From: Hyphomicrobiales bacterium
GTDB taxonomy: Bacteria; Pseudomonadota; Alphaproteobacteria; Rhizobiales; JAJFHC01
NCBI GenBank assembly: GCA_965227875.1
Contig: OZ245783.1
Coordinates: 4,769,929 to 4,833,928, forward strand
Direction: 5' to 3'
Length of the DNA stretch: 64,000 bases
Each line of letters starts with the position of its first letter. Within the stretch, counting starts at the first letter, position 1. Of this stretch, positions 10,051 to 29,699 are shown one piece after another. Both the position numbers and the translations under genes were made by a program. The notes beneath the pieces are model-generated. The model was not told the origin of the DNA. It saw nothing but the letters and a program-made list of their open reading frames with translations, and ran no database searches.

Positions 10051-10054
10051 ACCG

Positions 10055-12508: not shown

Positions 12509-12523
12509 CCCACACAGTGTGGG
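12509..12523. promoter_or_regulatory. 15-bp perfect palindrome CCCACACAGTGTGGG
   Basis: Read directly. The arms are too close for a hairpin loop, so it is more likely a dimeric protein-binding site. Confidence 0.35.
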
Positions 12524-12526
12524 GAC

Positions 12527-12612
12527 CTCTATGGCTACTTAGTGTCGCGACTCTATGTATGCTACCAATAGACCGCTCATAGCCCCTTGAAAACACTCAA
12601 AGTCTCAACTCA
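12527..12612 (+). repeat. Repeat D, copy 1
   Basis: About 75% identical to 12669-12752. Each copy contains the sub-motif CTC(T/C)ATG(G/TAT)GCTAC twice, and the block CCCTTGAAA.C.CTCAAAGT. Confidence 0.75.
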
Positions 12613-12668
12613 GTGTTTTCTGCGGCCCTTCCAGCGGTCTTCACCGTGTCGCAGCCTTGAGGGATGGT

Positions 12669-12752
12669 CTCCATGGCTACCTGGGGGACCCTCTATGTAT
12701 GCTACTTATTAACGCCGCGTAGGCCCTTGAAATCGCTCAAAGTGCTAACTCA
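12669..12752 (+). repeat. Repeat D, copy 2
   Basis: See copy 1. It ends on the stop codon of the small ORF at 12750. Confidence 0.75.
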
Positions 12753-12971
12753 AGCCAATCTAGCGGCGGCGTTCCGCTGGTCCTCAATGAGCGCTTCGAG
12801 CCACGGTTTTAAGTCGGCTCCGCGTCGCCAGTCCCTCAGGAAGTCCGCCGTCTCGTAGTCGGGCAGGAAGTCTGGCGCAAAGGCGACGGCTGCGGTCAGT
12901 TCCTTCAGGTCGGCGGGGCCGATCTTGCTCAGGTCAGTGGCCATAAGGTCGCGGTCCTGATCGGTCATCAT
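12750..12971 (-). CDS. Hypothetical 73-aa protein translationally coupled to the integrase
   Basis: Its ATG (12969-12971) overlaps the integrase TGA (12968-12970) as ATGA. Acidic, no family recognised. Confidence 0.45.
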   Translation of the reverse strand: MMTDQDRDLMATDLSKIGPADLKELTAAVAFAPDFLPDYETADFLRDWRRGADLKPWLEALIEDQRNAAARLA

Positions 12972-14389
12972 TGGTCGGTGTCCTTGTGTTGGGCGAGGGA
13001 TTCGGGTGGAAGCTGGACGGCTTCGACGCAAGGACGCATGGCTTCAGGTGGCGTCTTGCCGGGGTAGTGACTCATGGTGAGGTGGAGCATTTGCTTGATG
13101 CCGCCGTCACTATGGCCAACCACATCGGCAATAACCCAAGGTGTGTATCCCGCTTCGGGGTTCGCCATTTCGTCTCGGGCCTTGAGGATGAACCACCTGC
13201 GGAACGAATGGAAATCGACGTTGGACTTCGCCTTGTCGTTTGGCCTTTCATCGACTCCAATGTTGCATCGGTATCTGCTGAAGCGCTTCGAGGCAGGATC
13301 GGAACGGCTGTCCCTTGACAGCGGCACGGGAGGCAGTTCTTCAATAAGGTAGTCCGTGGGCCGCTTACCTTCGATGCGACGATCTACGATGGCCACAAGG
13401 GCGCTGTGTACGGGAATGCGCCGCTTGGCGTTCTCAGTCTTGCCAGCGGGGATGCTGAATATGCCACCCTCGCAATCGGACACCCTAAGTTGGCATATCT
13501 CCTCAATCCTCATGCCGCTCAGCGCTGCAATGCGCATCAGGTCAGCCAGAATGGGCGGTGCGGGGCCATAGATCAGGGTCGCTAGCTCAGCGTCCGTGTA
13601 AGGTCGTTTGCCACCGTCTGGCTCCCCTTCATGGGCGACACGTCGCGGCGGCGATGGGAGGGCCAATCCGCGCCACGGGCTTTCGTGTTCAATGTGCCCC
13701 TGCTCCTCCATCCACTTCCAGTACTCACGGAGGAAGCCCAGGTAGGTGCCCGCCCTGTTCCGCGATAGCTTTCCTGCAAGCTCCTCCCGAATAAACCTTT
13801 TGGCGGCACTGCGGTCCAAGGCCTCAACGGTCGTGTGTAGGCTGTTCCGCTCTAGCCATTTGGCCAGCATGTCTAGGACGCGGGAGAAGTCCTTTGCGCC
13901 CTTGATGGTGTAGCTCTTGTGCGCCTTGAAGGCGTCTGCAAGGTAGTCGATTGGTGTCGCCCGTCCGCTGATCACCTGCCAGATTTCCTTTGCCCTCTCC
14001 TCCCCGTAGTCCTCCTCCACTTCGCGGACCAGATCGGGGATGGCGGCATTGGACACTTGCATGGGCATTGAGTAGTTGAGCCGGATGCGCAGAGCCTCGG
14101 CGTTGATTGGATCGCCCGCGTCAAGGGACTTCTGTGCGGCGCTGAGGATGCCCTTCAGCGTCGCCACCACGGGCCACTTCCGCTCGTTCGCTGCCCGAAG
14201 GTCTGCCGTGCCAAGTGATTGCTTCAGGAAAGTCTTACCAATGATCGGGACAAGCCGCTTGGGCACCCTGACCCGCACTCTCCATTGCTGGCCGTGCCAC
14301 TCTAGGTATTGCCGATTGCTGGTCACGCTTGCCCCGTTTGTGCCCCACCACAGTGCCCCAGCTTGGAGCGTAAACTGCAATAAAGTCAA
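12968..14389 (-). CDS. Tyrosine recombinase / phage-type integrase (DUF6538-like N-terminus)
   Basis: N-terminal 'YLEWHGQQWRVRVRVPKRLVPIIGKTFLKQSLGTAD'. Catalytic region 'LSGMRIEEICQL', 'HSFRRWF', 'VGHSDGG...MSHY'. There is no ATG at the 5' end, so the start is TTG 14389 or GTG 14326 (uncertain). Confidence 0.88.
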   Translation of the reverse strand: MTLLQFTLQAGALWWGTNGASVTSNRQYLEWHGQQWRVRVRVPKRLVPIIGKTFLKQSLGTADLRAANERKWPVVATLKGILSAAQKSLDAGDPINAEALRIRLNYSMPMQVSNAAIPDLVREVEEDYGEERAKEIWQVISGRATPIDYLADAFKAHKSYTIKGAKDFSRVLDMLAKWLERNSLHTTVEALDRSAAKRFIREELAGKLSRNRAGTYLGFLREYWKWMEEQGHIEHESPWRGLALPSPPRRVAHEGEPDGGKRPYTDAELATLIYGPAPPILADLMRIAALSGMRIEEICQLRVSDCEGGIFSIPAGKTENAKRRIPVHSALVAIVDRRIEGKRPTDYLIEELPPVPLSRDSRSDPASKRFSRYRCNIGVDERPNDKAKSNVDFHSFRRWFILKARDEMANPEAGYTPWVIADVVGHSDGGIKQMLHLTMSHYPGKTPPEAMRPCVEAVQLPPESLAQHKDTDQ

Positions 14390-14424
14390 CAGGTTCTAAC
14401 AATGAAGATGCGGGGGAGAGTGCC

Positions 14425-14444
14425 TCCCTTCCTCTCCGCCATTT
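14425..14444 (+). repeat. attR-like direct repeat TCCCTTCCTCTCCGCCATTT
   Basis: Exact copy of 8744-8763. It lies 36 nt from the integrase 5' end. Confidence 0.85.
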
Positions 14445-14640
14445 TCTTTCTATGCATCCAGGCTTCAGCCCTTCTGGCTTAATCGCCGCCGTGATAGTTC
14501 AGATCCGGCGTTCCACGAGCCTTCACGCCTTCAAAAGCGACTGCGCCAGAAGTGAACGCCCGCCGGAGATGGTCTCCGACGGGCGCCCGCCCCCGGCCCG
14601 CATGCACTTGGATCATCCGCTCAACCGGAACGGTACTCGC

Positions 14641-16002
14641 TCAGTAGGGCCGACGGATCGAGAGACGCTCGTAGTGCGTGGACCCCAGCATCCCGTTTTC
14701 CGGATACTCGCTGATGCGCACAGAGTCCGACTGGTTCCCGCCCAGCAACCTGATCTTTCCGTCGCTGGCGCCCGTCCAGAAACCCACATGGCCGCCGATG
14801 ACCGCGCCGCCGCTCGATCCCGAACGCCGCCGGAACACCGCGATGTCGCCTTCGCGGGGGTCCCCGGTGACATCCGTGCCCCAGCCGCTGTCGTGCCAGG
14901 ACATCGCCCACTTGTTGTCCGTCCCGTTGAGGCCGGCCTGCTCGACGCAGTAGTTGACGAATGACGAGCACCACGCGGTTTCGTCGGGATACGCGCCACC
15001 GTTCGTCGTCGCGTGGTACATGACGATTCGCGGGTTGTGCGCGCTGCCCGCGATTTCCCTGACGCCAAGCTTCATTTCCGCGTAGGCCACGTCTATGGGC
15101 CTGTCGTGGGTCGCCTCGATCGGGAAGCCGCCCGCCGACGGACGCAGGAACGCCCCATGCATGAAACCGTCGGCGACGCCGTCGCCCTCGAGGTCGACTT
15201 TCACCCAGTCCCCCGAACGCCCGATGGCCGAAACGATGGCCCCTTCCGGCAGACTCCCGCTGTCGGCATATTCGGTTCCTGGGCCCTTTCGGACCTTGAG
15301 GCCCGACCGCGCGGTGACCTCCATGAGGACGACCGTGGACGACAAGGTCTCCGGCGCCTCCCCGTCGAGGCGGAACTGCCCGAATTCGGCGAAGGCCGGG
15401 CTCACGATATTGCCGTCATAGGTGAACGCCCCGCCCGGCCAGGTCTTGTGAAGGTACTTCTGGAACACCGCCCAGCGGTCGGTCTTCAGCATGTCCCGCG
15501 TGCCCGACCATCCGGTCGCACCGGCGAGCCACGCAAGGTCGACGAGTTCCTTCTTCATCATGACTGTCGCGACCGTGCCCGAACCGTAGATCCCGACCCG
15601 GTAGTCGTTTCCAAGTGCGGCACGGACCTCCTCGAAATAAGGCACGATCCTGTCCAGCTCGCTCTGGCGGAAGTAGTCGTGGTCGACCGCGAAGTAGATG
15701 GCCGAGCCTTCCGGCTGCTCCAGTCCGCGCGCCAGTTGAAGCGCCCTCTTCGCGTCCGCCCTGCCGCTCTGCGCGTCGAGGTCGTCGATGTGTCCACCCG
15801 CCCCGCCGCGCTGCTGGAACACCACCGCGATGGCGAGGTTCGCCGCGGTGAGGGCCGCCGCCTCCTCCGGCTCGAGACGCTTGGTCGGCAAGTTGTTGCT
15901 GTTGCGGTGATTGTAGTAGCGGATGACCGTCTTGACCCCGCGTGCAGCAATGTCGTCCGCGTTGTCGGCTATGTTCATGGGAACGTCGATTGCGTCATAC
16001 AT
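14641..16002 (-). CDS. Multidomain peptidoglycan hydrolase: DUF1906 (GH25-like) + SH3 + TIGR02594/CHAP-like
   Basis: 'GVKTVIRYY...AIYFAVDHDY...YRVGIYGSG' (DUF1906/Rv2525c-like). 'GLKVRKGPGTEYADSGSLPEGAIVSAIGRSGDWVKV' (SH3b). 'DETAWCSSFVNYCV...GDIAVFRR...GHVGFW...LLGGNQSDSV' (TIGR02594 NlpC/P60-CHAP-like). No signal peptide. Confidence 0.85.
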   Translation of the reverse strand: MYDAIDVPMNIADNADDIAARGVKTVIRYYNHRNSNNLPTKRLEPEEAAALTAANLAIAVVFQQRGGAGGHIDDLDAQSGRADAKRALQLARGLEQPEGSAIYFAVDHDYFRQSELDRIVPYFEEVRAALGNDYRVGIYGSGTVATVMMKKELVDLAWLAGATGWSGTRDMLKTDRWAVFQKYLHKTWPGGAFTYDGNIVSPAFAEFGQFRLDGEAPETLSSTVVLMEVTARSGLKVRKGPGTEYADSGSLPEGAIVSAIGRSGDWVKVDLEGDGVADGFMHGAFLRPSAGGFPIEATHDRPIDVAYAEMKLGVREIAGSAHNPRIVMYHATTNGGAYPDETAWCSSFVNYCVEQAGLNGTDNKWAMSWHDSGWGTDVTGDPREGDIAVFRRRSGSSGGAVIGGHVGFWTGASDGKIRLLGGNQSDSVRISEYPENGMLGSTHYERLSIRRPY

Positions 16003-16037
16003 GCTTTAGTCCTCCTGAGTGAGGGACGTCCTCGGGT

Positions 16038-17174
16038 CTACTGGGCGCCGAGATTCCATTTCAGCGACACGTTTCCGAACGTGTCATCCTTTCCGAGCTT
16101 GCCTGTTGTCCGGCCGACCTCTGTTTCCAGCCAGAAGCCCTCCGTCAGGCGGAATTCGGCGCCTCCGGTAAACTGCGGGTAGGAGTCGTCGCGCCCGTCT
16201 TCGCGTTCGGAGTGGAAATAGGCCGCCTCCGCCGAGACGTTCCACAGGGGCGACCCGGCACGGAAGCGCGCCGCAGCGACGCCCGTGTCCTGCTCGATGA
16301 AGGCGCCCGACCGCGTCGTGTCCGCGACGACTTCATCGAGCCGGAAACGCCCGTGCAGGACGAACTGGCTGTCGAAACCGAGGGGCTGGGTGTGCAGGCG
16401 AATGCCGAGCGTGCTCCAGAAAGCGATGCCCGCCCAGTCGAGGTCGTCAAGCGAACCGGACTTGCTGATCGCAGCGGGCGTCACGCCAAGCGTCCACGCC
16501 GACGGGTTGTTGAACGCGGGGGCGAAATCCTCCTTGCAGCGCTTCTTTTTCAGCGCCTGCAGGAGCAGTTTCTCCTCCGCGTCCCGACGCCGGAAAGCCG
16601 GACCATCCCCGAGCGGGTTGAGCACATCTCCGGTGACATGCGGCGGTGGCAACTCGGCGAACGCCTCGGCGAGGCAGCCGAGATAATCCCCGTTGCGGCG
16701 CGGATCGTGTTCTTCGGCGATCCAGGGCGTGACATGCAGACCGAGCGCGATCTGCGTGGACTTGTTCGAGCCCTCCGTCGATTTTGCCGTCGCCAGCGAC
16801 ACCTGCGTGTTGGTCAGCAGCCTCGTCATGTAGCTGCCCTGATAGTCCCCGAGCGAAACGGCATCGCCGTAGAAGACCAGGTAGGGATTGGTATCCAGCG
16901 CGACACCGGTCTGCAGGTCCCCGTTCCTGTCGATGGCGTTGAGAAGCGAAGCGCCGAGTTCGGTCGCCGTCGACGGGTTCGACGCGTTCTGCGGCGAAAG
17001 CCCGAGGATCGTGAACGCCGGAGATTTCGGCACGGAGACATCGACCTCCGGCACGTCGCCCATGTAGTGGTTTCCCAGGTGCACGCTTCCCGACTGCGCC
17101 GCCGCCATCTGCGGGACCGGAGCCAGGCACGCAACCGCGGCGAGGCAGGCCCATGTCCTGTAAATGTCTTTCAT
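16038..17174 (-). CDS. Hypothetical exported protein, possibly outer-membrane beta-barrel
   Basis: Signal peptide 'MKDIYRTWACLAAVACLAPVPQMAAAQ'. The C-terminal third has alternating hydrophobic beta-strand-like segments and ends 'VSLKWNLGAQ'. No family recognised. Confidence 0.6.
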   Translation of the reverse strand: MKDIYRTWACLAAVACLAPVPQMAAAQSGSVHLGNHYMGDVPEVDVSVPKSPAFTILGLSPQNASNPSTATELGASLLNAIDRNGDLQTGVALDTNPYLVFYGDAVSLGDYQGSYMTRLLTNTQVSLATAKSTEGSNKSTQIALGLHVTPWIAEEHDPRRNGDYLGCLAEAFAELPPPHVTGDVLNPLGDGPAFRRRDAEEKLLLQALKKKRCKEDFAPAFNNPSAWTLGVTPAAISKSGSLDDLDWAGIAFWSTLGIRLHTQPLGFDSQFVLHGRFRLDEVVADTTRSGAFIEQDTGVAAARFRAGSPLWNVSAEAAYFHSEREDGRDDSYPQFTGGAEFRLTEGFWLETEVGRTTGKLGKDDTFGNVSLKWNLGAQ

Positions 17175-17185
17175 GGCCGCCTCCC

Positions 17186-17581
17186 TCAGGATGCCGACAG
17201 AACGAAGCCGACATCGAAGGCGGCCACACCGTTCTTCAGCATCATGCGCTTCGTTCTCGGGCTGCCGCCCGCGTCGTCACCGCCCTGCAGGAACGACACG
17301 GTGACGCTTGCGAAGTTCTCCGGTCCCTGCGGGTTGATCAGCGGGGAGATGAAGCGCGCGGAAAGCGTAATGCCGACACCGTCGAGAACGGCGGCCGACC
17401 CACCAAGAACATGTTCCGGATTGTCTCCGCCAATGACGGTTCCCGAGTGCAGCAGGACGGGATCGGGTTCGCCCGGCAGGAACTTGTACAACCAGTAATT
17501 GGCCGCGTTGGCCTGTCCGAACTTCAGGCGGCACACGGGCGCGTCTGCGTTGGTATCGAGTTTGATGCTGTAACCGGCCAT
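17186..17581 (-). CDS. Hypothetical 131-aa protein (first gene of the hydrolase operon)
   Basis: ATG at 17581 follows GGAGGGAG. It ends 11 nt before the next gene. No signal peptide and no family recognised. Confidence 0.55.
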   Translation of the reverse strand: MAGYSIKLDTNADAPVCRLKFGQANAANYWLYKFLPGEPDPVLLHSGTVIGGDNPEHVLGGSAAVLDGVGITLSARFISPLINPQGPENFASVTVSFLQGGDDAGGSPRTKRMMLKNGVAAFDVGFVLSAS

Positions 17582-17805
17582 GTCGGTCTCCCTCCTCTGC
17601 AAAAGCCATAGGGCACGCTTCCGCCAATCTTCACCGGCGCTGGCCATACGTTTTCGCGCAGCGTGCCGTGGTGAAGATCAAGACTAGGAGGGGGGAAATC
17701 CGGCCTGCTGTGAGTAATGTGTGAATTGTGACGTTCGACGACTGTTCCGCGCCAAAACAACGACGAAAGAACACAGCCGGCGAGGACTGCGCATCACGCG
17801 CGATA

Positions 17806-17826
17806 CGCCCTTTTCCCGAAAGGGCG
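17806..17826 (-). terminator. Hairpin downstream of the 66-aa gene
   Basis: CGCCCTTT-tcccg-AAAGGGCG (8-bp stem) lies 18 nt after the stop at 17844. There is no U-tract, so the terminator call is tentative. Confidence 0.3.
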
Positions 17827-17843
17827 AGCGATCCTTCGATCGA

Positions 17844-18044
17844 TTACTGTGACGGAGGCCGCGGCGCGAGGTCCGCCTGGCTGATCCGGTCGGCGAGAAT
17901 GATCAACCAGTGGACAACGGCCTTCTGGTGATCCTCGAGTTCGCTCAGTTGCGAAACCTCGACAGCGGACTCCCTGAATTCCGACCATCTGAGGAAGAAA
18001 TCCATCAGGTCTTTCACGCAGACCTCCCGGTCGACTTGCGCCAT
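17844..18044 (-). CDS. Hypothetical 66-aa protein
   Basis: ATG at 18044 follows GAGGTGG. Sequence 'MAQVDREVCVKDLMDFFLRWSEFRESAVEVSQLSELEDHQKAVVHWLIILADRI'. Divergent from the regulator gene. Confidence 0.45.
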   Translation of the reverse strand: MAQVDREVCVKDLMDFFLRWSEFRESAVEVSQLSELEDHQKAVVHWLIILADRISQADLAPRPPSQ

Positions 18045-18225
18045 TTCCGTACCACCTCGAGCATCATGTACTGACGCCAACCTAAGAGACAGCGGCACCG
18101 TCTACGGCGTGAATAAAGTGTGAGGCAGGTTGGCAGCTCCCGGGGCCGGTGGTATCGATTGAATTGATCATCATTAAATACCTATCGAAAAGTAGTGTAT
18201 TCTATAGTGATTTCGGGGGTGCGCC

Positions 18226-19875
18226 ATGGCAGACAAACAAAACAGGATTTTGTCGGTCAATCTGTTTGGGGCATGCTTCGTTCAATCTGCAACCGGTGAC
18301 AGCTTCAGCATCACGGGAGACAAGCATCGCGCCCTGGTGGCCCTGCTCGTCACCGCTCCGTTCGGCCGCCGGTCCAGAACCTTCCTGCAGGAAACGCTGT
18401 GGGGGTCCGCGAACTACGATACCGGACGCCAGAACCTCCGCCGGGCCCTCTCCGACATCAAGCGCAGGATCGGGCCGGCGTTCGAAGGGCTTTTCCGGTC
18501 GACCAATTCCGACATCACCATAGACCTGACGAAGATCGAGTTTCTCGGACGTCCCGGGTCCGGTATTTTCCTCGACGGCCTCGACATTCCGATGGTCCAG
18601 TTCCAGCGCTGGCGCAACGCGATCAGGGACAACCCCAGCCAGCTCTACGCGTTGTACAGCCTCGAGGCGAAACTGCCCGAAACACAGATCGTGCCGTCGA
18701 TCGCCATCCTTCCCTTCCGCGCCTTGGGCGGATCCGACATGGAAAGCGTGATGGGCGACTGGCTGGCGGAAGAAATCTGCAGGTCGCTGTCACGGTCGAA
18801 CCTGTTGCACGTCATCTCGCATCTTTCCAGCCGCGTGCTCGCGAAGCGCGTCGTCGACATCGGCATGGTGCGCGCTGCATTCAACGTCGACTATTGCGTC
18901 ACGGGCACCCTGCGTCATGTGGACGGCCACTGGGTCCTCGACACCGACTTCGTGGATGTCCGGTCCGGAAAACTGCTCTGGACCCGCCAGTTCAAGCGTG
19001 ACCAGGCGACGTTCTTCAGCACGTCGGCCCAGGGCATCGGCGAACTGATTTCGGCCATCGGACGCTCGATCGCGGACGAAGCCATACGTCATGCGACGCA
19101 GAACCGGATGGACAGTCTCCGCGATCACCAGATGCTGATGGCGAGCGTCAGCCTCATGCACAAGATGACCCTCGCGGAGTTTGCGCGCTCGCGCGAGTTG
19201 CTCGAGGAGCTTCTGCGCCGGGCCCCGCATGCCGCCGAGGCCCACGCCTGGCTGGCCGAATGGTACGTGATGTCCATCTTCAACGGCTGGAGCACGGACC
19301 GGGAGCGCGACCAGTTGCTGGCCTGCGACAGCATTGCAAGAGCCCTCGACATCGAACCTGAAAACGCCTTCTGCATCACGATCGACGGCGTGGTGAACAA
19401 CAACCTGCTGCACCGGCTGGACCTGGCCGAAGACCGGTTCGACCACGCCCTGGAACTAAATCCGAACCAGGCGATGTCGTGGCTGTTCAAGGGCGTCGCG
19501 CACGCCTATCGGGACGATGCGGAAGAGGCGGTGAGCTGCGCGGAGAAGGCGCGGCGCCTGTCGCCGTTGGACCCGCTCGAGTATTTCTTCGACTCGCTCA
19601 GTGCGACCGCTCATCTCGCGGCAGAGAATTACGACAGGGCGCTGGAACTCGCCGACAACGCAATCCGCCTGAACAGCCGCGAGATATCCTCTCTCAGGGT
19701 CAAGATTTCATCGCTCTACCATCTCGGCCGCAAGGCGGAGGCGGTGGCCATCGCAAATCATCTGCTCGAACGCCAGCCGGGATTCCGCCTCGACCGTTAC
19801 GTGGCGGAACACCCGGCCGCGAATTTCAAGGTCGGTCGCAACATGGCCGAGGCACTGAAAGCCTGCGGTCTCTAG
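18226..19875 (+). CDS. SARP/BTAD-type winged-helix transcriptional regulator with TolB-N-like and TPR domains
   Basis: N-terminal 'ILSVNLFGACFV...GDKHRALVALLV...FLQETLWG...RQNLRRALSDIKRRIG' is a SARP-type wHTH. 'IAILPFRALGG...WLAEEI' follows. The C-terminal ~200 aa are TPR-like. Confidence 0.75.
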   Translation: MADKQNRILSVNLFGACFVQSATGDSFSITGDKHRALVALLVTAPFGRRSRTFLQETLWGSANYDTGRQNLRRALSDIKRRIGPAFEGLFRSTNSDITIDLTKIEFLGRPGSGIFLDGLDIPMVQFQRWRNAIRDNPSQLYALYSLEAKLPETQIVPSIAILPFRALGGSDMESVMGDWLAEEICRSLSRSNLLHVISHLSSRVLAKRVVDIGMVRAAFNVDYCVTGTLRHVDGHWVLDTDFVDVRSGKLLWTRQFKRDQATFFSTSAQGIGELISAIGRSIADEAIRHATQNRMDSLRDHQMLMASVSLMHKMTLAEFARSRELLEELLRRAPHAAEAHAWLAEWYVMSIFNGWSTDRERDQLLACDSIARALDIEPENAFCITIDGVVNNNLLHRLDLAEDRFDHALELNPNQAMSWLFKGVAHAYRDDAEEAVSCAEKARRLSPLDPLEYFFDSLSATAHLAAENYDRALELADNAIRLNSREISSLRVKISSLYHLGRKAEAVAIANHLLERQPGFRLDRYVAEHPAANFKVGRNMAEALKACGL

Positions 19876-19893
19876 AATTGGGGAGGAATTTCT

Positions 19894-21003
19894 ATGTCCT
19901 ATTTTGGCGCAATGCACGGGATGCACGGCATGCATGGGATGCACGGCATGCATGGAATGCACGGCATGCACGGGATGCATGGCATGCACGGAATGCAGTC
20001 TTCAGGCGGCGGCTCCGGGTCGCTCCTCGGCCTGCAGTCGAGTGCCCAGGCCATCGTCCAGGTTGCCAAGGACGAATACCTCGCAGACAGCTTTCTCGGG
20101 ATCCACGACTCCGGCGCGGCACCGGTCAGCCGCTGGGAACCGTATGTCCGGCAGATGCTATATCAGGTCGAGTTCCTGAACCGCTACCGGTGCGAAGCCG
20201 GAACCGACGGCGAAAATGGGGTCTCCGGCGTCTCGGTTTCCTGGGCCGGCGAACAATTGCTTTCCCTCGGCAATCCGCCCGAGGCCACATTCATCGCCCA
20301 GCTCGGCAAGACGGCCGCGGAGGCCAGCCAGCGGGTTCAGCGCTACGACGAGATCATCTCGCAGGCAGGCGCGTTTCCCGATTATTTCGGCATGCTTCTT
20401 TCCCTGACCATGCCGCAGTTCACCCACACGTTCGAACTCATCCAGACTGTACACGTCCTGGCCGGCTACGCGTCCATGCCGCCCAAGCACCTGCTCGCGT
20501 GCCGGCGGCCGAGCGAGATCGACGGCCGCCTGATGACCCTGCTGCCCAATCCCGGCCACGGCAGCTTTCCGAGCGGACATGCGACGCAGGCGACGGCGGT
20601 CGCCACCGTACTCGATCACCTGCTCGACGTTGTCGCAGAGCACTACCCCGACACGGAAAACAGAAAGCGGCTGATGAGGAAGCAGGCGCGGAGGATCGCC
20701 ACCAACAGGACGGTCGCCGGAATCCATTTCCCGATCGACCACACGGCCGGCGAACTTCTCGGCAAGCGGGTCGGTATCATGCTGCTGAGGGCATGCGGGG
20801 TGGCTGCGGCGGACACGCCTGTGAAACGAGCGACCTATACCGCGTACAGTGGCGACGCCTACGCCCAGTCGGTGAATGAGCCCATCGAGAAGGCCACCGG
20901 TGTCTCCGAAGACGACGAAGAAATCGCATCCACGGACCGGATCGAGGTGTTCGAGTGGCTGTGGTCGAAGTCGGTCGATGAATTCATCCGCAGAGCGGCA
21001 TGA
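19894..21003 (+). CDS. PAP2 / vanadium-haloperoxidase-like protein with N-terminal (Met-His-Gly)x9 repeat
   Basis: GGGAGGA lies 6 nt upstream. N-terminus is 'MSYFGA(MHG)9MQSSGGGSGS'. PAP2 tripartite motif is 'CRRPSE' ... 'FPSGHAT' ... 'NRTVAGIHFPID'. No TM segments or signal peptide. Confidence 0.75.
   Translation: MSYFGAMHGMHGMHGMHGMHGMHGMHGMHGMHGMQSSGGGSGSLLGLQSSAQAIVQVAKDEYLADSFLGIHDSGAAPVSRWEPYVRQMLYQVEFLNRYRCEAGTDGENGVSGVSVSWAGEQLLSLGNPPEATFIAQLGKTAAEASQRVQRYDEIISQAGAFPDYFGMLLSLTMPQFTHTFELIQTVHVLAGYASMPPKHLLACRRPSEIDGRLMTLLPNPGHGSFPSGHATQATAVATVLDHLLDVVAEHYPDTENRKRLMRKQARRIATNRTVAGIHFPIDHTAGELLGKRVGIMLLRACGVAAADTPVKRATYTAYSGDAYAQSVNEPIEKATGVSEDDEEIASTDRIEVFEWLWSKSVDEFIRRAA
19912..19992 (+). 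repeat. 9-bp in-frame tandem repeat ATGCA(C/T)GG(N) x9
   Basis: Read directly. Units start at 19912, 19921, ... 19984. Variation is only at synonymous third positions. Confidence 0.95.
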
Positions 21004-23348
21004 CGATGGACGACATCGCGCCGATCACCGGGACATCGATCCCTCAGAAGAAACTCGGGCCCTATGAACGCTGGATGGCGGAATTCGGCAAGGACTACGA
21101 CCTGCCGCCCATGTCGCTGCAGCACCCGTCCTACCTCTCCGGGATTGCCCGTTTCTCCCGGGCCCAGCCCACACTCCCCGCTCCAAATGACATGGCGGAC
21201 ACCGCTGTCACCGTGGGAAGCATGGGATCGTGGCGCCCGACACTCTCGCCGGTGATGTGGCGGGGGCCGCAGGGTCGCGAGTTCCATTATTCGTTTCTTC
21301 CCATGCTCATGGAGGCAAGGACAGGGACAGAAGATCCGGCCGGGGTTTTCAATGCGCAGGTTTTCGAGTCGCTTGTCGCCAGTCTCCATGAGGACTACGA
21401 CGCGCACATCATGAGGCAGAAAGAAATTGCGGATTCGTCCGATCCTTTCCCGGAGTTACCGCCGGGCTACGAGGGGTTTCTGGAGGATTTTCTTAACGAG
21501 CCCCCGCCCGATTTCAGTTTCGGCTTCCCTCTCCAGGCCCGGTCGGTGAACGTGTCGCAGTCGCCAGACGCCCCTCGGACCGTCTCGCGGGCCACGAGAT
21601 CCCAGGCGGTCTTCAAAGACGACGCCTACAATCCGGAAAAGCCGCTCGTGATCGTCGCCGTGATCGACGATGCAATTCCGTTCGCGCACAAGGCCTTCAG
21701 ATGCAAGGGCAGCGGAAAGACGCGGATCGACTATTTCTGGAGCCAGTCGGCGGAGGCCGACGGCACGATGCTTTTCGGGCGAGAGTTGTCCGGCCGCGCC
21801 ATCGACGACCTCATCATGCAACAAGACGGCGACGAGGACGTCCTGTATCGGCGGGCCGGCGTCCTCGGCGGAAACGGCGGGCCGGTTTCCGCGCTTGCAG
21901 GCAACTTCTCCCACGGCGCCCATGTCGCCGGGCTTGCGGCCGGGGACTGGCCGGCCGACAGCGATGCCAATGTCCGGATCATCGCGGTCGACCTGCCCGT
22001 ATCGAGCAGTTGGGATACATCGGGCTTCGGCAAGGACATGTTCGTCCTCAGCGCCATGCACTATATTTTCGACCGTGCGGACAGGATCGCGGAAGCCTAC
22101 GGATCCGACACCCCTCCCCTGATCGTCAATCTCAGCTATGGCTATTCCGGCGGGCCGAAAGACGGGACCGGTCTCATCGAACTCGCGATGGGCGAGATGG
22201 TCCATCATCGCCGCAGCGTTGTCCGCGCCCCGACGGCCCTCGTCATGCCGAGCGGCAACATGTTTCTCGACCGGTTGCACGCCGTGGTCACCGAAAAGCA
22301 TATCGCGAAAGGCAAAACGGCGACGTTGCCCTGGCGGATCCTCCCCGATGACCGGACATCCAGCTTTCTCGAAATCTGGCTTCCGGCAGGTGTCGGGGCC
22401 GATGATTTCCGTCTTGTCGTCAATAGCCCGGACGGCACCAGGGTCATCGAGGAGACAGGAACTGTCGAGTTGCCACGGACCGTCGACATGGACGTCGACG
22501 GAAAGCGGGTCGGCCAGTTTTCCATCGACCAGCGCGACACCACGAACGCGGCCGCGCGCGACAGTGGCGTACAGCCACAGACACGCATCATGCTCGCCCT
22601 TGCCCCGACGGAAACCATGTGCCATCTGCCGGCCGCGCCTGCGGGCCTGTGGACGGTGGAAATCTCCTACGCGGATGGAGCCGAGGAAGGGAAACTGCAG
22701 GGCTACACCACGAACATCGTGGGTGAACGCGTCCCTGCGGATATCCGTTGCTGGATCCAGAGAGACGTCTCGTTCGGAACCAACGACATCGGCGCGAAGC
22801 AGAGCATTTTCGACGATCCGCTCAACACGCTCTACGACAGTCATGGACGCCCGCACGACACCGACTCGGTATGGCGGGACGACTTCCTGGTACGGCGCTT
22901 CGGCAGCATCAACGGAATGTCGACCCACCCCACGGTTCTGGTCGTCGGTGGCTACGTCCGCAACGAGTACCGTCCGGCACCCTACAGTTCCGCGGGCTTC
23001 CTGCGAAAGAACGAGGCCTCGGAGTGGGCCTGGCTGGCCGGCGACCAGGTCGACTGCGTGGCCCCGAGCGAGGAGTCATGGATCGACTTCGGGATTCCGT
23101 CCATCGGAACAAGGTCGGGAATGCATGCGCGCATGAATGGCACGAGCGTCGCAGCACCCCAGGTCAGCCGGCGTCTGGCCCTGTATTTTTCCGGGCAGGA
23201 CCAGGCCCGGATGTCGGACGGAGACTGGATCCGGGAGACCGGCAATTATGTCCGCAAGCTCGAGCCCGACCGGAAGAAGTACCAATCCGTTCATGGAACG
23301 ATAAAACAGAAGGACGAGGCCCTGATCGGCCAGGGCCTGATCGACTAG
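21000..23348 (+). CDS. Large intracellular subtilisin-family (S8) serine peptidase
   Basis: ATGA overlap with the upstream stop. Asp 'VAVIDDAIPFAH', His 'NFSHGAHVAGLAAG', Asn 'MPSGN', Ser 'MNGTSVAAPQVS'. No signal peptide. The ~220-aa N-terminal region is unknown. Confidence 0.85.
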   Translation: MTMDDIAPITGTSIPQKKLGPYERWMAEFGKDYDLPPMSLQHPSYLSGIARFSRAQPTLPAPNDMADTAVTVGSMGSWRPTLSPVMWRGPQGREFHYSFLPMLMEARTGTEDPAGVFNAQVFESLVASLHEDYDAHIMRQKEIADSSDPFPELPPGYEGFLEDFLNEPPPDFSFGFPLQARSVNVSQSPDAPRTVSRATRSQAVFKDDAYNPEKPLVIVAVIDDAIPFAHKAFRCKGSGKTRIDYFWSQSAEADGTMLFGRELSGRAIDDLIMQQDGDEDVLYRRAGVLGGNGGPVSALAGNFSHGAHVAGLAAGDWPADSDANVRIIAVDLPVSSSWDTSGFGKDMFVLSAMHYIFDRADRIAEAYGSDTPPLIVNLSYGYSGGPKDGTGLIELAMGEMVHHRRSVVRAPTALVMPSGNMFLDRLHAVVTEKHIAKGKTATLPWRILPDDRTSSFLEIWLPAGVGADDFRLVVNSPDGTRVIEETGTVELPRTVDMDVDGKRVGQFSIDQRDTTNAAARDSGVQPQTRIMLALAPTETMCHLPAAPAGLWTVEISYADGAEEGKLQGYTTNIVGERVPADIRCWIQRDVSFGTNDIGAKQSIFDDPLNTLYDSHGRPHDTDSVWRDDFLVRRFGSINGMSTHPTVLVVGGYVRNEYRPAPYSSAGFLRKNEASEWAWLAGDQVDCVAPSEESWIDFGIPSIGTRSGMHARMNGTSVAAPQVSRRLALYFSGQDQARMSDGDWIRETGNYVRKLEPDRKKYQSVHGTIKQKDEALIGQGLID

Positions 23349-23898: not shown

Positions 23899-25290
23899 TC
23901 AGTGCGGCATCCGGTTGTAGGCGTCGAGCGCCGCGATCTTGTAGGCTTCGGCGAGCGTCGGGTAGTTGAACGTGTTCTCCACGAAATACTCCAGCGTTCC
24001 CTTCAGGTTGAGCACGGCCTGTCCGATATGGATAAGTTCCGTCGCCCCTTCGCCGACGATGTGACATCCGAGCAATCTCCGGGTCTTCAGTGAAAAGATC
24101 ATCTTCATCATGCCGGTATCGAGCCCCATGATATGGCCCCGGCTCGTCTCACGGAACCGCGCGACCCCGCATTCGTAGGGGATGCCCCGCTCGGCGACCT
24201 CCTGTTCGTTCATGCCGACCGTCGAGATTTCCGGCACGGAATAGATCCCATAGGGGAAGTACTCCGGCGGTGCGTGGCATTCCGCGCCCAGCGCATGACA
24301 GGCGGCGATCCTGCCCTGCTCCATCGAGGTCGACGCCAGGCTGGGAAACCCGATCACGTCGCCGGCGGCATAGATGTGGCTCACGTCCGTCTGGAAGGTC
24401 GCGGGATCGACGCTGATGCGCCCCCGGTGATCGGCCTCGAGTCCGCAGGCCTCGAGGCCCAGACTTTCGACAGCCCCCATCCGGCCCGCCGCGAACAGGA
24501 CGACGTCGGCGCGGACCATGCGGCCATCCTCGAGGTAGACCGTGCTCGGCCCCGCCACGCCACGTTCGATCCGCTGCACCTGGCAGCCCATGCGCAGGAT
24601 CACGCCGCGGTCGCGCAACTGGTGCATGAAGTCTTCGATCAGTTCCCGGTCGATGAAGTCGAGCATGGTCTTGCGCGGCTCCACGACCGTCACCTGGACG
24701 TCGAGCGCACTGAAGATGGTGGCATATTCGATGCCGATCACACCGGCCCCGATTACCGCGACGGACTTGGGAAGATCGCCGAGTTCGAGCACCTCGTCGC
24801 TGTCGATCACCGATCGTCCGTCGAAGGGAACGGAGTCCGGACGGAACGGCCTCGTCCCGACGCTGAGCACGAAACGGTCGCCACGGCAGACCACGTGCTC
24901 GCCATTCTCGCACTCCACCTCCACCGTGTTCGGGTCGCTGAAACGCGCCGAGCCCTTGAGCGTGGCCACGCGGTTCCGCGCAAACTGGTGCTCCAGGACC
25001 TCGACCTCGTGGTCGAGCGTGATATGCAGCCGTTTCCTGAGGTCCTCGGCCGAAATCTCCTGCTTCACGCGATAGGCCCGGCCGTAGAAGCCGCGTTCGC
25101 GCCACCCCGAAAGGTTGAGCACGGTCTCGCGCAACGTCTTGCTGGGAATGGTCCCGGTATGGACCGAAACGCCGCCGACCCGGCGCCCCTTTTCGATCAC
25201 CAGCACGTCACGGTCGAGTTTCGCGGCCTGGATGGCCGCACGCCGCCCGGCCGGCCCGCTGCCGATGACGATCAGATCATATGACTGCAT
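23899..25290 (-). CDS. sthA: Soluble pyridine nucleotide transhydrogenase
   Basis: 463 aa. 'YDLIVIGSGPAGRRAAIQAAK', 'TGTIPSKTLRE' and a C-terminal dimerisation domain 'FNYPTLAEAYK'. Lacks the redox-active CxxxxC, as is typical of SthA/UdhA. Confidence 0.85.
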   Translation of the reverse strand: MQSYDLIVIGSGPAGRRAAIQAAKLDRDVLVIEKGRRVGGVSVHTGTIPSKTLRETVLNLSGWRERGFYGRAYRVKQEISAEDLRKRLHITLDHEVEVLEHQFARNRVATLKGSARFSDPNTVEVECENGEHVVCRGDRFVLSVGTRPFRPDSVPFDGRSVIDSDEVLELGDLPKSVAVIGAGVIGIEYATIFSALDVQVTVVEPRKTMLDFIDRELIEDFMHQLRDRGVILRMGCQVQRIERGVAGPSTVYLEDGRMVRADVVLFAAGRMGAVESLGLEACGLEADHRGRISVDPATFQTDVSHIYAAGDVIGFPSLASTSMEQGRIAACHALGAECHAPPEYFPYGIYSVPEISTVGMNEQEVAERGIPYECGVARFRETSRGHIMGLDTGMMKMIFSLKTRRLLGCHIVGEGATELIHIGQAVLNLKGTLEYFVENTFNYPTLAEAYKIAALDAYNRMPH

Positions 25291-26581: not shown

Positions 26582-26800
26582 ACCGGTTGCAAATTCCGGT
26601 AACCGCACAACCCACGTACATAGAAGCGTGCCAAAAATGTCACGGCACGCTCAAAATCCTTAGTCTCCTGAAAACTTCATGCCTTCAAACTGTTGCAGAT
26701 ATTCGGACAACTTTGCAGACTTCTGGCAGGGGGGTGCCGAGACTTCTTTGAAGTCGGCAACATCGGCTCGAGAATTGGGGGAACATTCGTGCTCGTCGTC

Positions 26801-28744
26801 ATGTCGTGGAAACGTGCCGCGTTTCTGCTCACAGCCGGATTGGGGCTTGGCATCACACCTGCTCTTTCCCAAGAGGTGCTGCTGAACGGTGTTTCCCTGG
26901 GAGGTCCGATTGTCGCCGGTCAGGTCGCGATTCCGGACAATGGGCTTCTCAAGATCGAGAATGGAGCCAGCATCACCAACAACGGCGTCACCGTAATCGA
27001 CGCTGTGGACGGCTCCACGATCAACATCGACAACCTGGGCACGATCAACTCAACGGCCGGTGACGGCGTCAATGTCCTCGGCTCGACCCTCGTCCAGAGC
27101 AACTCCGGTACCGTCACCGCGAGTTCTTCCGGGATTGCCGCGCACTACATTACCAATCTTGTCAACTCGGGCACCATTCTCGGCACGAATTTCAACGGGG
27201 TATACCTACAGCCCGGCGTTGGCGTCATAACAAGCATGACGAACACGGGAACGGTCGCAAGCACATTCGGATGGGGCATCAATGCGCCAACCATTACGAA
27301 CCTGGTAAACGCCGGCGTCGTATCCGGAAGCAGCCGCGGGATCAGTGCAGACCTCATCACCAATCTCGTCAACTCCGGCACGATCACGGGAACAAACGGC
27401 GAGGCTATCAACACCGCTAGCCTCGTGAGCCTCACCAACACAGGAAGGATTACCGGGCAGAACGGCAATGCGGTTTCCGCGACAACAATCACGAGTTTCA
27501 CAAATGCCGGTACCATCATCGGCAGCAGCGGCACGGCTATTCGTGAGTTTGGCGCTGCAGACACGGTCCTGACTCTTCTTCCCGGCTCGAACATACAGGG
27601 TCTGGTCGACCTCGGCGGAGGCGTAAACACAGTTGTCGTTGGAAATGGCCTGAGCACGGCCACGACCTTTGCCGCGGCTCCCGACATTATAAATTCGTCG
27701 GGCCAGCCTTTCGCGCTTGCCGGCACGACGTTACATGTCGTGGACCCGACAGGGTTTTCAATGACCGGCAGTCAGCTTGCCGACACGACTGGAGCAATTT
27801 CGGACGTTCTTGCAGGTCAATTCGGCGGCGGATCCAGTGGTTCGGTTCAGGTTGCGATGGGGGACGGCACTGGGTTTTTGGTGACGCCGGTTTCCGACAA
27901 CGGTTTGACCGCTCGCGCATGGGCCGAGGTTTTCGGCGGTTGGAAAGACAGGGCCGGCGATGGTGCGGACGTCGGCTCCACGAACATTTTCGGCGGCATT
28001 GTCGGCGGTATTGAAATGGCGCGCGCCGACGCAGGCCGCATAGGCGTTTTTGTCGGCGGATCTGCCGGTGAAGTCGAGGTGGACAACAACGCACAAGATA
28101 TCGATACGGAAACTGTGTTCGGTGGCCTTTACGCGAGTCATGACAACGGGGTGATACGCCTTGATGCTGCAGTGACCGTCGGGCTCGCCGATTACGACTC
28201 CGACCGTTTCGTGGCAAACAACACGGCCGGCGGCGGAATACAGGTAGCCCGTGCGGAGTATGACGGTGTTTTCGTGTCTCCGGAGCTTACTGTATCGACA
28301 TCAATGACGATGGGACCTGCCACACTAAGGCCGTCGCTCAGAGTCCGCTATGCGGGCCTCTGGCTGGACAGTTATTCCGAATCCGGCTCCTCGTCCAACC
28401 TCTCTGTCGACGACCGCGAGGTGCATATCCTTGAAGCCCGCGCTCAGGTTTCCCTGCCGATGACAGTTGCGAGCGGCGAAAACGGAACGCTGACAACCGA
28501 AATCAGGACAGGCATTGATGTTCGCACGAAAATCGGTTCCGATCGCGTCGATGCCGTTCTTGTCGGACAACAGCTGTCGTTCGACTCTGGTGGTGACGAC
28601 GAGGTGCTGACGGCGTTCATCTCCGCGGCGTTCGCTATGGCTTTTGCCGACGCACTGACCGTATCGGGAGCGCTCGAAGGTGGCTACGGCACCGACGAAA
28701 CCGCGCACGCAATCGCTCGCTTGAGAGCGACTGTCGATTTCTGA
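26801..28744 (+). CDS. Autotransporter (type Va) with beta-helical passenger and C-terminal beta-barrel
   Basis: Signal 'MSWKRAAFLLTAGLGLGITPALSQE'. Repeated '(I/L)TNLVNSGT(I)xG(T/S)' passenger motifs. The C-terminal ~280 aa have an alternating beta-strand pattern and end 'ARLRATVDF'. Confidence 0.85.
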   Translation: MSWKRAAFLLTAGLGLGITPALSQEVLLNGVSLGGPIVAGQVAIPDNGLLKIENGASITNNGVTVIDAVDGSTINIDNLGTINSTAGDGVNVLGSTLVQSNSGTVTASSSGIAAHYITNLVNSGTILGTNFNGVYLQPGVGVITSMTNTGTVASTFGWGINAPTITNLVNAGVVSGSSRGISADLITNLVNSGTITGTNGEAINTASLVSLTNTGRITGQNGNAVSATTITSFTNAGTIIGSSGTAIREFGAADTVLTLLPGSNIQGLVDLGGGVNTVVVGNGLSTATTFAAAPDIINSSGQPFALAGTTLHVVDPTGFSMTGSQLADTTGAISDVLAGQFGGGSSGSVQVAMGDGTGFLVTPVSDNGLTARAWAEVFGGWKDRAGDGADVGSTNIFGGIVGGIEMARADAGRIGVFVGGSAGEVEVDNNAQDIDTETVFGGLYASHDNGVIRLDAAVTVGLADYDSDRFVANNTAGGGIQVARAEYDGVFVSPELTVSTSMTMGPATLRPSLRVRYAGLWLDSYSESGSSSNLSVDDREVHILEARAQVSLPMTVASGENGTLTTEIRTGIDVRTKIGSDRVDAVLVGQQLSFDSGGDDEVLTAFISAAFAMAFADALTVSGALEGGYGTDETAHAIARLRATVDF

Positions 28745-28931: not shown

Positions 28932-29699
28932 ATGGACAATTCGCTGCCGAGATACCAGCAGGTTCAGCAGCATATCCGCGACCGCATCGCCGGCGGTGAG
29001 TGGGCCGTCGATCAACGCATTCCGTCCGAACACGAACTCGTCGCCGAACTCGGCGTGAGCCGCATGACCGTCAATCGCGCCGTGCGCGAACTCACCGACC
29101 AGGGAATCCTGCGCCGGGTTCAGGGTCTGGGGACCTTCGTCGCCGATCCCCGCCCCCAGGCCACCCTGCTCGAGATCCGCAACATCGCCGACGAGATCCG
29201 CGCACGCGGCGGCGATTATTCCTGTGAACTCGTTCGCCTCGGCGAGACGCCGGCCAACGACGACCAGGCGGCCCACATGAACCTCGCGCCCGGCGATGTC
29301 ATCTTCCACAGCCTGCTGGTGCATTGCGAGAACGGCGTCCCGATCCAGCTCGAGGACCGCCTCGTCAACCCGGCCGTGGGCCCGGACTATCTCGACGTCG
29401 ATTTTGCCGCCACCACACCCAACGAATACCTGATGAAGGTGGCCCCGCTCGCCAACGTGGAGCACATCGTGGACGCCGTCATGCCGGAAGCCGACACCCG
29501 CGAACTCCTGCGGATGCCCGAAGGCGAGCCCTGCCTGCTTCTGCATCGCCGCACCTGGGCTCTCGGCGCCGTCGCGTCGCTCGCCTGGCTGACGCACCCG
29601 TCCAGCCGGTATCGCCTGCGGGCCAGTTTTTCAGCCGAGGACGCCCGGCCCTACCAGCCCTTCCAGTCTCTCCCCAAAGGAGCTTTTTCCGCATCATGA
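28932..29699 (+). CDS. hutC: Histidine utilisation repressor (GntR/HutC family)
   Basis: '[67 protein letters not shown]' followed by a UTRA-like C-terminus. An alternative ATG is at 28917. Confidence 0.88.

Follow-up and report, generated by a model that had tools for sequence, protein, structure and literature searches.

A conserved alphaproteobacterial cassette pairing a repeat-tailed phosphatase-like enzyme with a Csp-like subtilase

The Csp proteases of clostridia are subtilases defined by a prodomain that is retained and a protease domain split by a jelly-roll domain; one of them, CspB, is the site-specific activator of the zymogen pro-SleC, a peptidoglycan hydrolase. Class A acid phosphatases (PhoN, PhoC, EB-NSAP) are periplasmic enzymes of about 230 residues. 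Among transcriptional activators, HilA and EilA join an N-terminal winged helix-turn-helix (wHTH) of the OmpR/ToxR type to a large C-terminal TPR region; the SARPs (Streptomyces antibiotic regulatory proteins) are defined by a BTA domain directly after the winged helix and act on promoters with direct repeats spaced 11 bp apart. Here we describe a gene cassette, located in a 64,000-nucleotide stretch of contig OZ245783.1 from a Hyphomicrobiales bacterium (the window), whose regulator, PAP2 enzyme and S8 subtilase resemble these proteins at a distance and are accompanied by a divergently transcribed gene for an orphan protein of 66 residues.

The components belong to known superfamilies (PAP2, S8, OmpR/ToxR wHTH and TPR), and annotation of the four proteins goes no further than generic or hypothetical labels. 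For each specific family tested for membership, at least one defining feature failed. No described system matching the cassette was found in PADLOC (regulator, PAP2 and S8 proteins), Pfam, NCBIfam or the full-text literature, in line with the initial annotation of this DNA, which had assigned the genes to no described system. We rate the cassette, with an enzyme tail that is uniform within each protein and hypervariable between proteins, as a new kind of system relative to catalogues through PADLOC-DB 2.0. It probably marks a proteolytic signalling or activation pathway without a described counterpart.

Composition and conservation of the cassette

The initial annotation described three adjacent genes as an unrecognized module and suggested a joint function. 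The three open reading frames (ORFs) lie where it placed them (Table 1), on a shared strand, with a gap of 18 nt between the regulator and PAP2 genes and an ATGA shared by the PAP2 stop and the S8 start; their third-position GC content of 0.79–0.82 is gene-like. No cassette protein carries a signal peptide or a membrane segment. The module itself proved larger, comprising four genes plus a conserved operator. In the first three loci examined, whose S8 proteins are 57%, 41% and 45% identical to that of the window, the regulator–PAP2–S8 order is kept among unrelated flanks, and a small divergent ORF, homologous among the three, again stands beside the regulator.

Homologues of the S8 protein number 313 in a collection of 5.8 billion proteins, nearly all of them unnamed and alphaproteobacterial. 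A scan with one genome per species gave 151 relatives, from which 80 loci were retrieved, all of Rhodobacterales or Hyphomicrobiales, and gene presence at each locus was scored by tblastn with the window proteins. The PAP2 gene lies directly 5′ of the S8 gene wherever upstream DNA is available (77 of 77 loci), and the regulator gene directly 5′ of the PAP2 gene in 71 of 71 species loci. The PAP2 stop is separated from the S8 start by at most 30 nt in 64 of 75 loci, 13 of them with overlapping genes. Homologues of the 66-residue ORF are present in 66 of the 68 loci with enough DNA, in four cases downstream of the S8 gene. The regulator is the most conserved protein (46–57% identity to the window), followed by PAP2 (33–45%) and S8 (31–46%). 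Clustering of 1,246 flanking ORFs yielded no further conserved partner, only generic ABC ATPases, and no conserved transporter near the cassette. The adjacency of regulator, PAP2 and S8 genes is far beyond chance, which bears out the conserved module with a joint function proposed initially, and the locus is a self-contained accessory cassette of many Alphaproteobacteria.

The S8 family also occurs on 31 plasmids or chromids, 20 of them from Phaeobacter and the rest from Rhizobium, Bosea, Roseibium, Paracoccus, Caballeronia and Paraburkholderia. None of the 50,697 phage records searched contains it, and a phage origin of the cassette was rejected on this count. Some Betaproteobacteria have variant cassettes, as do plasmids of roseobacters and rhizobia. 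Searched against 1.84 billion representatives, a profile of the PAP2 family retrieves 995 clusters (E ≤ 1e-30), and the RefSeq labels of the Phaeobacter and Terrarubrum copies are generic only.

The repeat tail and the two enzymes

All complete PAP2 homologues carry near their N-terminus a run of identical short units, which starts 3–6 residues after Met1 and keeps a fixed phase. The window protein, which starts MSYFGA(MHG)9, has the ninefold tract that the initial annotation had reported. Over 70 tracts with 720 units, the copy number ranges from 4 to 18 with a median of 10. The clade nearest the window has the units MHG, LHG, IHG, VHG, AHA, GHA, GHG and SHA; a second clade has MNG, LNG, ING, VNG, LQG, VQG, LSG, TSG and QSG; and the remaining homologues have IGG, VGG, LGG, FGG, YGG, TGG, AGG, MGG, MRG and MGS. 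Units of 4, 5, 6 and 9 residues exist in some relatives, and the tails of distant variants include (VGG)17, (IGG)10, (SAGF)n, (NSF)6, (QGGFS)5 and 9-residue units. The tail is kept in all three cassette variants, and in the AlphaFold2 (AF2) model of the window protein residues 1–40 are disordered, with a predicted local distance difference test (pLDDT) score below 50.

Identity of the units resides in the peptide. In the window tract the amino-acid units are identical, whereas the codons vary (CAC/CAT; GGC/GGG/GGA) and the DNA is only 81% identical. Across the 70 tracts, codon pairs compared within a tract show a synonymous difference in 60.3% of cases and an amino-acid difference in 2.8%, and Leu and Ser codons are drawn from both of their codon families. 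Because the codons are scrambled while the amino-acid units stay identical, the unit is taken to be kept by selection on the peptide, not by recent slippage, and it has been rewritten many times between lineages. On the same sequence comparison, (MHG)9 is one instance of a hypervariable but internally uniform tail that is found family-wide. We are aware of no described bacterial family with such a tail, and the literature search found none.

Two other accounts of the tract were rejected, and a third was weakened. Recent DNA slippage is ruled out by the scrambled codons, which include AGC/TCN for Ser and five Leu codons. Metal binding by (MHG)9 is ruled out as a family property, since the units of most homologues (GGI, GGF, NGL and others) contain neither His nor Met. 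A collagen-like triple helix is at odds with the Pfam Collagen score (17.3 against a cut-off of 27.2 bits), with the Gly-free units AHA, HAS and NSF, and with units of four and five residues. Homologues that seem to lack the tract are truncated contigs or frameshifted assemblies, and the latter still encode (MRG)8 and (VRG)10 in another frame. At two loci (L070 and L081, about positions 6850–7100) the tract and the PAP2 domain lie in different frames, which may reflect a long-read assembly error or a real pseudogene.

The tract is followed by a Gly-rich linker, a conserved helix at residues 41–58 (LQSSAQAIVQVA), a family-specific β-sheet at residues 98–126 and a catalytic helical core at about residues 140–300. 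The tripartite PAP2 motif claimed at the outset aligns in profile searches (Pfam PF01569, 30.5 bits against a cut-off of 27.2), and K198-x6-R205-P206, P226-S227-G-H229 and R272-x5-H278-x3-D282 are invariant among 53 homologues. The protein has no membrane segment, as had been noted (maximum Kyte–Doolittle hydropathy over 19 residues, 1.35), and no signal peptide. With the AF2 model (pLDDT 83) as query, the best Foldseek matches are acid phosphatases (7f17, 9qcj, 2a96 and 1d2t at E 2e-6 to 7e-4, PhoC and PhoN among them; E 2e-6 to 1e-3 for the best matches overall), and class A acid phosphatases superpose with a TM(target) of about 0.6 over about 185 residues, whereas vanadium haloperoxidase structures give E ≥ 0.01 and a TM(target) of about 0.3. 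Pfam finds no VCPO_N domain in the window protein, and most homologues carry precomputed matches to PF22778 (VCPO_2nd), which leaves some likelihood to a haloperoxidase-like activity. The first half of the earlier label "PAP2/haloperoxidase-like" stands, and as regards the fold the second half is better replaced by class A acid phosphatase, as which the protein models with its catalytic motif intact; it is predicted to be catalytically competent and cytoplasmic. Fold and complete KX6RP-PSGH-SRX5HX3D motif are shared with the class A enzymes. The absence of a signal peptide, the extra β-sheet, the pre-domain helix, the repeat tail and the constant pairing with a subtilase set the cassette enzyme apart from those periplasmic proteins.

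The subtilase matches Pfam PF00082 with 32 bits against a cut-off of 21.8, and its catalytic set of D223, H305, N420 and S716, which the initial annotation had described as intact, is invariant in 51 homologues. D223 and H305 are 82 residues apart, N420 and S716 296 residues. In the AF2 model (pLDDT 84, predicted TM score 0.90), a prodomain-like α/β region occupies about residues 20–180, and a β-rich, jelly-roll-like insert about residues 427–586, between N420 and S716. The 11 best Foldseek matches in the PDB are all CspA, CspB or CspC (E 8e-24 to 3e-21; TM(target) 0.62–0.74). The long Asn–Ser spacing remarked on initially is real, and a Csp-type prodomain and jelly-roll insert explain both the N-terminal region then called unknown and this spacing. 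The corresponding NCBIfam models score weakly and below membership (CspBA, 23.5 against a cut-off of 1250 bits; CspC, 20 against 675). The protein models as a Csp-type subtilase. It is predicted to be catalytically competent and cytoplasmic; as initially stated, an export signal is lacking, and the homologues do not belong to the ordinary secreted subtilisins.

Like the clostridial Csp proteases, the cassette subtilase combines a prodomain and a jelly-roll-interrupted protease domain with the absence of a signal peptide, and the likeness to CspB and pro-SleC extends to a putative substrate with an N-terminal extension, encoded by the adjoining gene, and to peptidoglycan hydrolases in the putative regulon. 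It differs in that its N-terminal region and insert are larger, its partner is PAP2-like rather than SleC, and its hosts are non-sporulating Proteobacteria; no SleC is present in the non-sporulating Alphaproteobacteria that host the cassette. The end of the prodomain bears no obvious similarity to the repeat tract. Tripeptidyl peptidase II (TPPII), a giant cytosolic S8 exopeptidase with an insert between Asp and His, offers another comparison, as both are large intracellular subtilases and the cassette has a putative substrate with a tripeptide period running from the N-terminus in fixed phase. TPPII identity was rejected: there is no TPPII Pfam match, the top 50 structural matches do not include this enzyme, and the cassette insert lies between Asn and Ser. 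A strict tripeptidyl-peptidase reading is in addition weakened by the units of 4, 5, 6 and 9 residues.

Regulator, operator and putative cargo

The regulator consists of a wHTH (about residues 8–100), an α/β domain (about residues 155–295) and TPRs (about residues 305–545), of which Pfam recognizes TPR families only. Trans_reg_C is not matched in the window regulator by Pfam, either at E ≤ 0.1 or at E ≤ 10; it is matched in 5 of 17 regulator N-termini (best E 0.011), and a profile of these 17 N-termini (150 residues) matches ToxR (8b4c) with E = 0.007 and OmpR-family proteins with E of 0.4–1.4. Residues 158–447 match the NCBIfam HilA/EilA model NF009037 at E = 1.1e-10 and 40.5 bits (cut-off 589); in relatives, the corresponding region has weak matches to FlgO. 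No BTA domain is matched at E ≤ 0.1, and for this reason the regulator is not a SARP, as it had first been called. Judged by these profiles, it is probably a divergent OmpR/ToxR-type activator with a TPR sensor and a HilA-like architecture.

With HilA and EilA it has in common a probable N-terminal OmpR/ToxR wHTH and the large C-terminal TPR region, and with HilA the same overall length, as a distant relative and not a member of that family. With the SARPs it shares a putative target of direct repeats one helical turn apart, by a promoter without a sigma-70 consensus match. What separates it from both is the FlgO/TolB-like central domain and the replacement of its head by a class III cyclase in other lineages. 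In Alsobacter (L085), a Burkholderiaceae metagenome-assembled genome (L086) and a Joint Genome Institute (JGI) metagenome contig (L087), a Guanylate_cyc domain precedes the FlgO-like and TPR region, and the genes of a repeat-tailed PAP2 protein, with tails (VGG)17, (SAGF)n and (IGG)10, and of an S8 protein follow; the small-ORF motif and the operator are absent from these three loci. Because wHTH and cyclase heads are swapped, it is the sensor part (central domain and TPRs), not the output, that belongs with PAP2 and S8. A third variant, on a 78-kb conjugative plasmid of Phaeobacter inhibens (L088, 2974–8635), encodes a wHTH protein of 687 residues, a PAP2 protein whose tail is (NSF)6, and an S8 protein of 685 residues.

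The 66-residue protein is characterized by the motif RDLxDFxLRW...WLIxLADRVGxxDL, in which D12, W20, D52, R53 and D58 are invariant; Pfam, NCBIfam and the PDB contain no relative. Between its gene and that of the regulator, the divergent promoter region contains a conserved direct repeat, GTGAR-N6-GTGAR, with an 11-bp period and the family consensus CGCGTGAAAAAAGYGTGAA-N6-TTGG; the putative wHTH target is taken as the direct repeat CGCGTGAAAAAAGCGTGAA (TTCACG-N5-TTCACG). The repeat occurs in 64 of 69 loci, always on the same strand and 70–141 bp upstream of the regulator start, and it keeps tightly constrained distances to conserved codons of the two divergent genes. The background of GTGAR-N6-GTGAR is at most 71 matches in 2.73 Mb, most of which are second copies just outside the cassette, and in the 64 kb of the window the exact pattern occurs only at 18109 and 17710, compared with 0.42 occurrences expected. 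The cyclase-type and Phaeobacter variants lack the operator, and no sigma-70 consensus promoter was found in the divergent promoter region of the window.

Second operator copies lie to the left, beyond the small ORF, in 15 loci and to the right, just after the S8 gene, in 23. They point into the cassette, each upstream of an outward-transcribed neighbour. Among the products of these neighbours are GH108+PG_binding_3+CHAP and PG_binding_1+CHAP proteins, a VanY-like peptidase, a PatG-type subtilase, a protein with VCPO_N and PAP2 domains, ferritin-like and DUF4403 proteins, and also a LuxR-type regulator and small secreted Cys peptides. The PatG-type subtilase (Peptidase_S8+PatG_D+PatG_C) is found beside an operator copy in Roseicyclus (L076, 10038–12263), and VCPO_N+PAP2 proteins of 600–664 residues stand beside operator copies in Bradyrhizobium (L023 and L031, about 2700–4600, minus strand); each adds to the putative regulon another, distinct member of its superfamily, S8 or PAP2. 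At two Bradyrhizobium/Xanthobacteraceae loci, small secreted-looking peptides that end in ...LAQ[VT]GCSSRxxCxR are encoded directly beside operator copies (L039, 4257–4442, minus strand; L050, 10444–10713, plus strand) and may be cargo. In the window, the three-gene operon to the left of the cassette, with intergenic gaps of 11 and 35 nt and an operator copy upstream, is probably regulon cargo; its first two genes are common only to the window and its closest relative (L005).

Table 1 Features of the window (positions on the 64,000-nt stretch)
Feature	Position	Strand	Description
Regulator gene	18226–19875	+	549 residues; wHTH, central α/β domain, TPRs
wHTH of regulator	18247–18525	+	about residues 8–100
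PAP2 / class-A-acid-phosphatase-like enzyme gene	19894–21003	+	369 residues, soluble; Pfam PAP2, AF2 model
(MHG)9 tract of PAP2 protein	19912–19992	+	residues 7–33
Csp-like subtilase gene	21000–23348	+	782 residues; Pfam S8, AF2 model, Foldseek
Prodomain-like region of S8	21057–21539	+	about residues 20–180
D223	21666–21668	+	S8 catalytic set
H305	21912–21914	+	S8 catalytic set
N420	22257–22259	+	S8 catalytic set
Jelly-roll-like insert of S8	22278–22757	+	about residues 427–586
S716	23145–23147	+	S8 catalytic set
66-residue orphan protein gene	17844–18044	-	divergent from regulator; homologues at other loci
Terminator-like hairpin	17792–17771		beyond the 66-residue gene
Main operator-like direct repeat	18109–18124	+	GTGAATAAAGTGTGAG; divergent promoter region, half-sites 11 bp apart
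Second operator-like repeat copy	17710–17725	+	GTGAGTAATGTGTGAA; 63 bp upstream of the start codon (ATG) of 17186–17647, a leftward gene
Candidate cargo operon	14641–17647	-	three genes left of the cassette
Cargo operon gene 1	17186–17647	-	153-residue protein
Cargo operon gene 2	16038–17174	-	378 residues, signal peptide, weak match to an outer-membrane-protein β-barrel
Cargo operon gene 3	14641–16002	-	peptidoglycan-hydrolase-like, Rv2525c-GH + SH3 + CHAP, no signal peptide
tRNA-Ser(GCT)	8670–8760
att-like direct repeat, copy 1	8744–8763		TCCCTTCCTCTCCGCCATTT; 20 nt
att-like direct repeat, copy 2	14425–14444		perfect repeat of copy 1
Resolvase gene	11458–12039	-	within the islet
DUF6538/phage-integrase gene	12968–14389	-	within the islet
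Pyridine nucleotide-disulphide oxidoreductase gene	23899–25290	-	downstream of the cassette
Autotransporter gene	26693–28744	+	downstream of the cassette
Urocanase gene	29324–31372	+	opens a hut-like operon

Further to the left, the 20-nt direct repeat at the tRNA-Ser gene bounds a 5.7-kb islet with resolvase and integrase genes. Segments of 62–133 nt within it are duplicated about 1.0–1.2 kb apart with 74–84% identity (9821/11054, 9894/10855 and 11195/12335), which suggests internal tandem duplication. The cassette was ruled out as part of this integrase element, since the att-like repeat bounds the islet at 8744–14444, outside the cassette. On the other side, the oxidoreductase, autotransporter and urocanase genes of the window are not conserved beside the cassette elsewhere. 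In Hoeflea (L006 and L008) a cluster of Ser/Thr kinase, FHA and PP2C genes lies upstream of the cassette, and an operator copy is followed by genes for a 370–396-residue membrane protein and a 2,420-residue protein without Pfam match (10505–18313).

Possible roles of the tail

We favour, tentatively, a reading in which binding by the regulator, processing of the tail by the protease and readout by the TPRs form one mechanism. The regulator would bind the direct repeat and thereby control its own cassette as well as neighbouring cargo, often peptidoglycan hydrolases. The subtilase would be a protease dedicated to processing, comparable with CspB in its action on pro-SleC, and would have the repeat tail of the co-expressed phosphatase as its substrate. 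The S1 and S4 pockets of subtilases prefer hydrophobic residues, and a hydrophobic residue at every third position could fill these pockets at each unit. Cleavage of the tail would switch the phosphatase (in activity, partner binding or stability), free short peptides, or do both, and the TolB/FlgO-like and TPR part would read out the state of the phosphatase or its tail into transcription, or into synthesis of a cyclic nucleotide monophosphate in the cyclase-headed variant. The Csp likeness of the subtilase argues for this reading, since Csp proteases activate a zymogen site-specifically and keep their prodomain; so do the frequency of the operator and its loss where the wHTH is replaced, the retention of four genes among unrelated flanks in the 80 species loci, the universality of the tail, and a sensor that stays constant while the output is swapped. 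Further points in its favour are the short distance between the PAP2 and S8 genes, the peptide-level uniformity of the units, the invariant catalytic residues of both enzymes, the phosphatase-like fold, the lack of export signals and the second operator copies beside cargo genes.

Several points weigh against it. The link between protease and tail has no direct support; no S8 column stood out as co-varying with the hydrophobic residue of the tract, and the same holds for the columns of the PAP2 and TPR proteins. The units GGT, GGA, AHA, HAS and HGG contain no hydrophobic residue, and these, together with the units of 4, 5, 6 and 9 residues, deprive the period-3 rationale for S1 and S4 of generality. 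Simple removal of a pro-region does not explain the need for identical units. Since the pocket rationale is not general and unit identity is left unexplained, we regard processing of the tail by the subtilase as possible rather than probable. The reading assigns no substrate to the phosphatase and no role to the 66-residue protein, and the spacing of the operator is equally constrained to both divergent genes, which favours neither direction of action.

The tail could instead be structural, a self-association element or spacer of the polyglycine-II, collagen-like or sticker-spacer kind that would oligomerize or localize the phosphatase, with other targets for the subtilase, for example the regulator, the 66-residue protein or the cargo hydrolases. 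Gly-rich units with one hydrophobic residue (GGI, GGF, GGY, NGL, SAGF, QGGFS) do look like cohesive repeats of the GGX and FG types, uniformity allows a tract to pair in every register, and the weak Pfam Collagen match and the disorder of the monomer tail are in keeping with this; moreover, the zymogen on which CspB acts is a peptidoglycan hydrolase, and enzymes of this class recur among the cargo. Yet structural repeats normally tolerate conservative substitutions, whereas the units here are identical, and the Gly-free units AHA, HAS and NSF mean that a collagen or polyglycine-II geometry is not general. The cargo hydrolases, for their part, are not conserved across loci, whereas the PAP2–S8 linkage is universal. 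We consider this account unlikely.

A more improbable alternative is that the tail stores multiple copies of one short peptide, mostly a tripeptide, released by the subtilase as a lineage-specific signal or metabolite and either sensed by the TPRs, in the manner of RNPP regulators, or exported. Short peptides are common ligands of TPR domains, and there are multi-copy precursors elsewhere that S8 proteases process, namely yeast alpha-factor by Kex2, fungal KEX2-processed repeat precursors and the cyanobactin precursor PatE by PatA and PatG. As in those systems, tandem identical units with differing codons adjoin or depend on a subtilase. Strict unit identity despite scrambled codons is what selection at the level of a product predicts, the unit varies between lineages in a manner structured by clade, the tract begins in fixed phase 3–6 residues from Met1, and the cargo of some loci includes a PatG-type S8 protein and a LuxR gene. 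On the other hand, a specific receptor and its ligand would not be expected to combine the most conserved protein of the cassette, the TPR protein (about 50% identity), with a hypervariable unit. There is no conserved transporter nearby, units of 4–9 residues occur in some relatives, and no spacer or recognition sequence separates them; compared with known precursors, the cassette units are short (3–6 residues) and without spacers, the array is fused to an enzyme and not to a leader, and no secretion or tailoring genes are present.

We give the same low weight to a role in conflict, lysis or defence, in which the TPR protein would sense phage or envelope stress, protease and phosphatase would serve as effectors or activators, and peptidoglycan hydrolases would execute lysis or antagonism. 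A patchy distribution in varied contexts, conjugative plasmids included, would fit such a system, as would cargo near operator copies that includes CHAP, GH108, VanY-like and amidase/M15 proteins without signal peptides as well as VCPO-like enzymes. Against this, the defence scan, which covered a candidate raised in the initial annotation and was run with PADLOC, returned no family of PADLOC-DB 2.0 at E ≤ 0.1 for the three proteins scanned (regulator, PAP2 and S8); the phage records contain no match; and typical effectors such as an NTPase or a nuclease are missing from the cassette. The integrase islet beside it is a distinct element with att-like boundaries of its own, and the cargo differs from locus to locus.

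More speculative again, and in our judgement improbable, is an encoded array of identical tri- to hexapeptides that the Csp-like subtilase would cut one unit after another. The TPRs would then read either the freed peptide or the tail itself, which by growing shorter would count or time, into transcription or cyclic nucleotide synthesis. If true, it would represent ribosomal short-peptide signalling in Gram-negative bacteria, with lineage-specific "words" and a mobile cassette controlling cell-wall hydrolases. A pathway like those for RiPPs, peptides that are made on the ribosome and modified after translation, with the tail as a core peptide array modified by the PAP2/haloperoxidase-like domain and then cut by S8, is highly improbable, because the precursor-like repeats fused to an enzyme, the vanadium haloperoxidases within the PAP2 superfamily, the VCPO_2nd matches of most homologues and the VCPO-like and PatG-like cargo of a few loci are set against a very varied unit chemistry (GGI, MHG, MRG, NSF) with no common modifiable residue, a fold nearer phosphatases than haloperoxidases, and the lack of further conserved tailoring or export genes.

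About 1,000 public sequence clusters belong to the phosphatase family, and the subtilase is present in at least 150 species. Carriers include tractable models (Phaeobacter inhibens, Roseibium and Bradyrhizobium), and Phaeobacter, with its 20 plasmids bearing the S8 family, is a genetically tractable host. Because the operator is conserved and the cassette is small, the question is directly testable. The cassette links three things not joined before, namely a Csp-type protease outside spore-formers, a cytoplasmic phosphatase of class A type and a sensor with interchangeable output. Understanding it might uncover a mode of proteolytic signalling, or of making peptides, that is new for Gram-negative bacteria, together with the control of adjacent peptidoglycan hydrolases.

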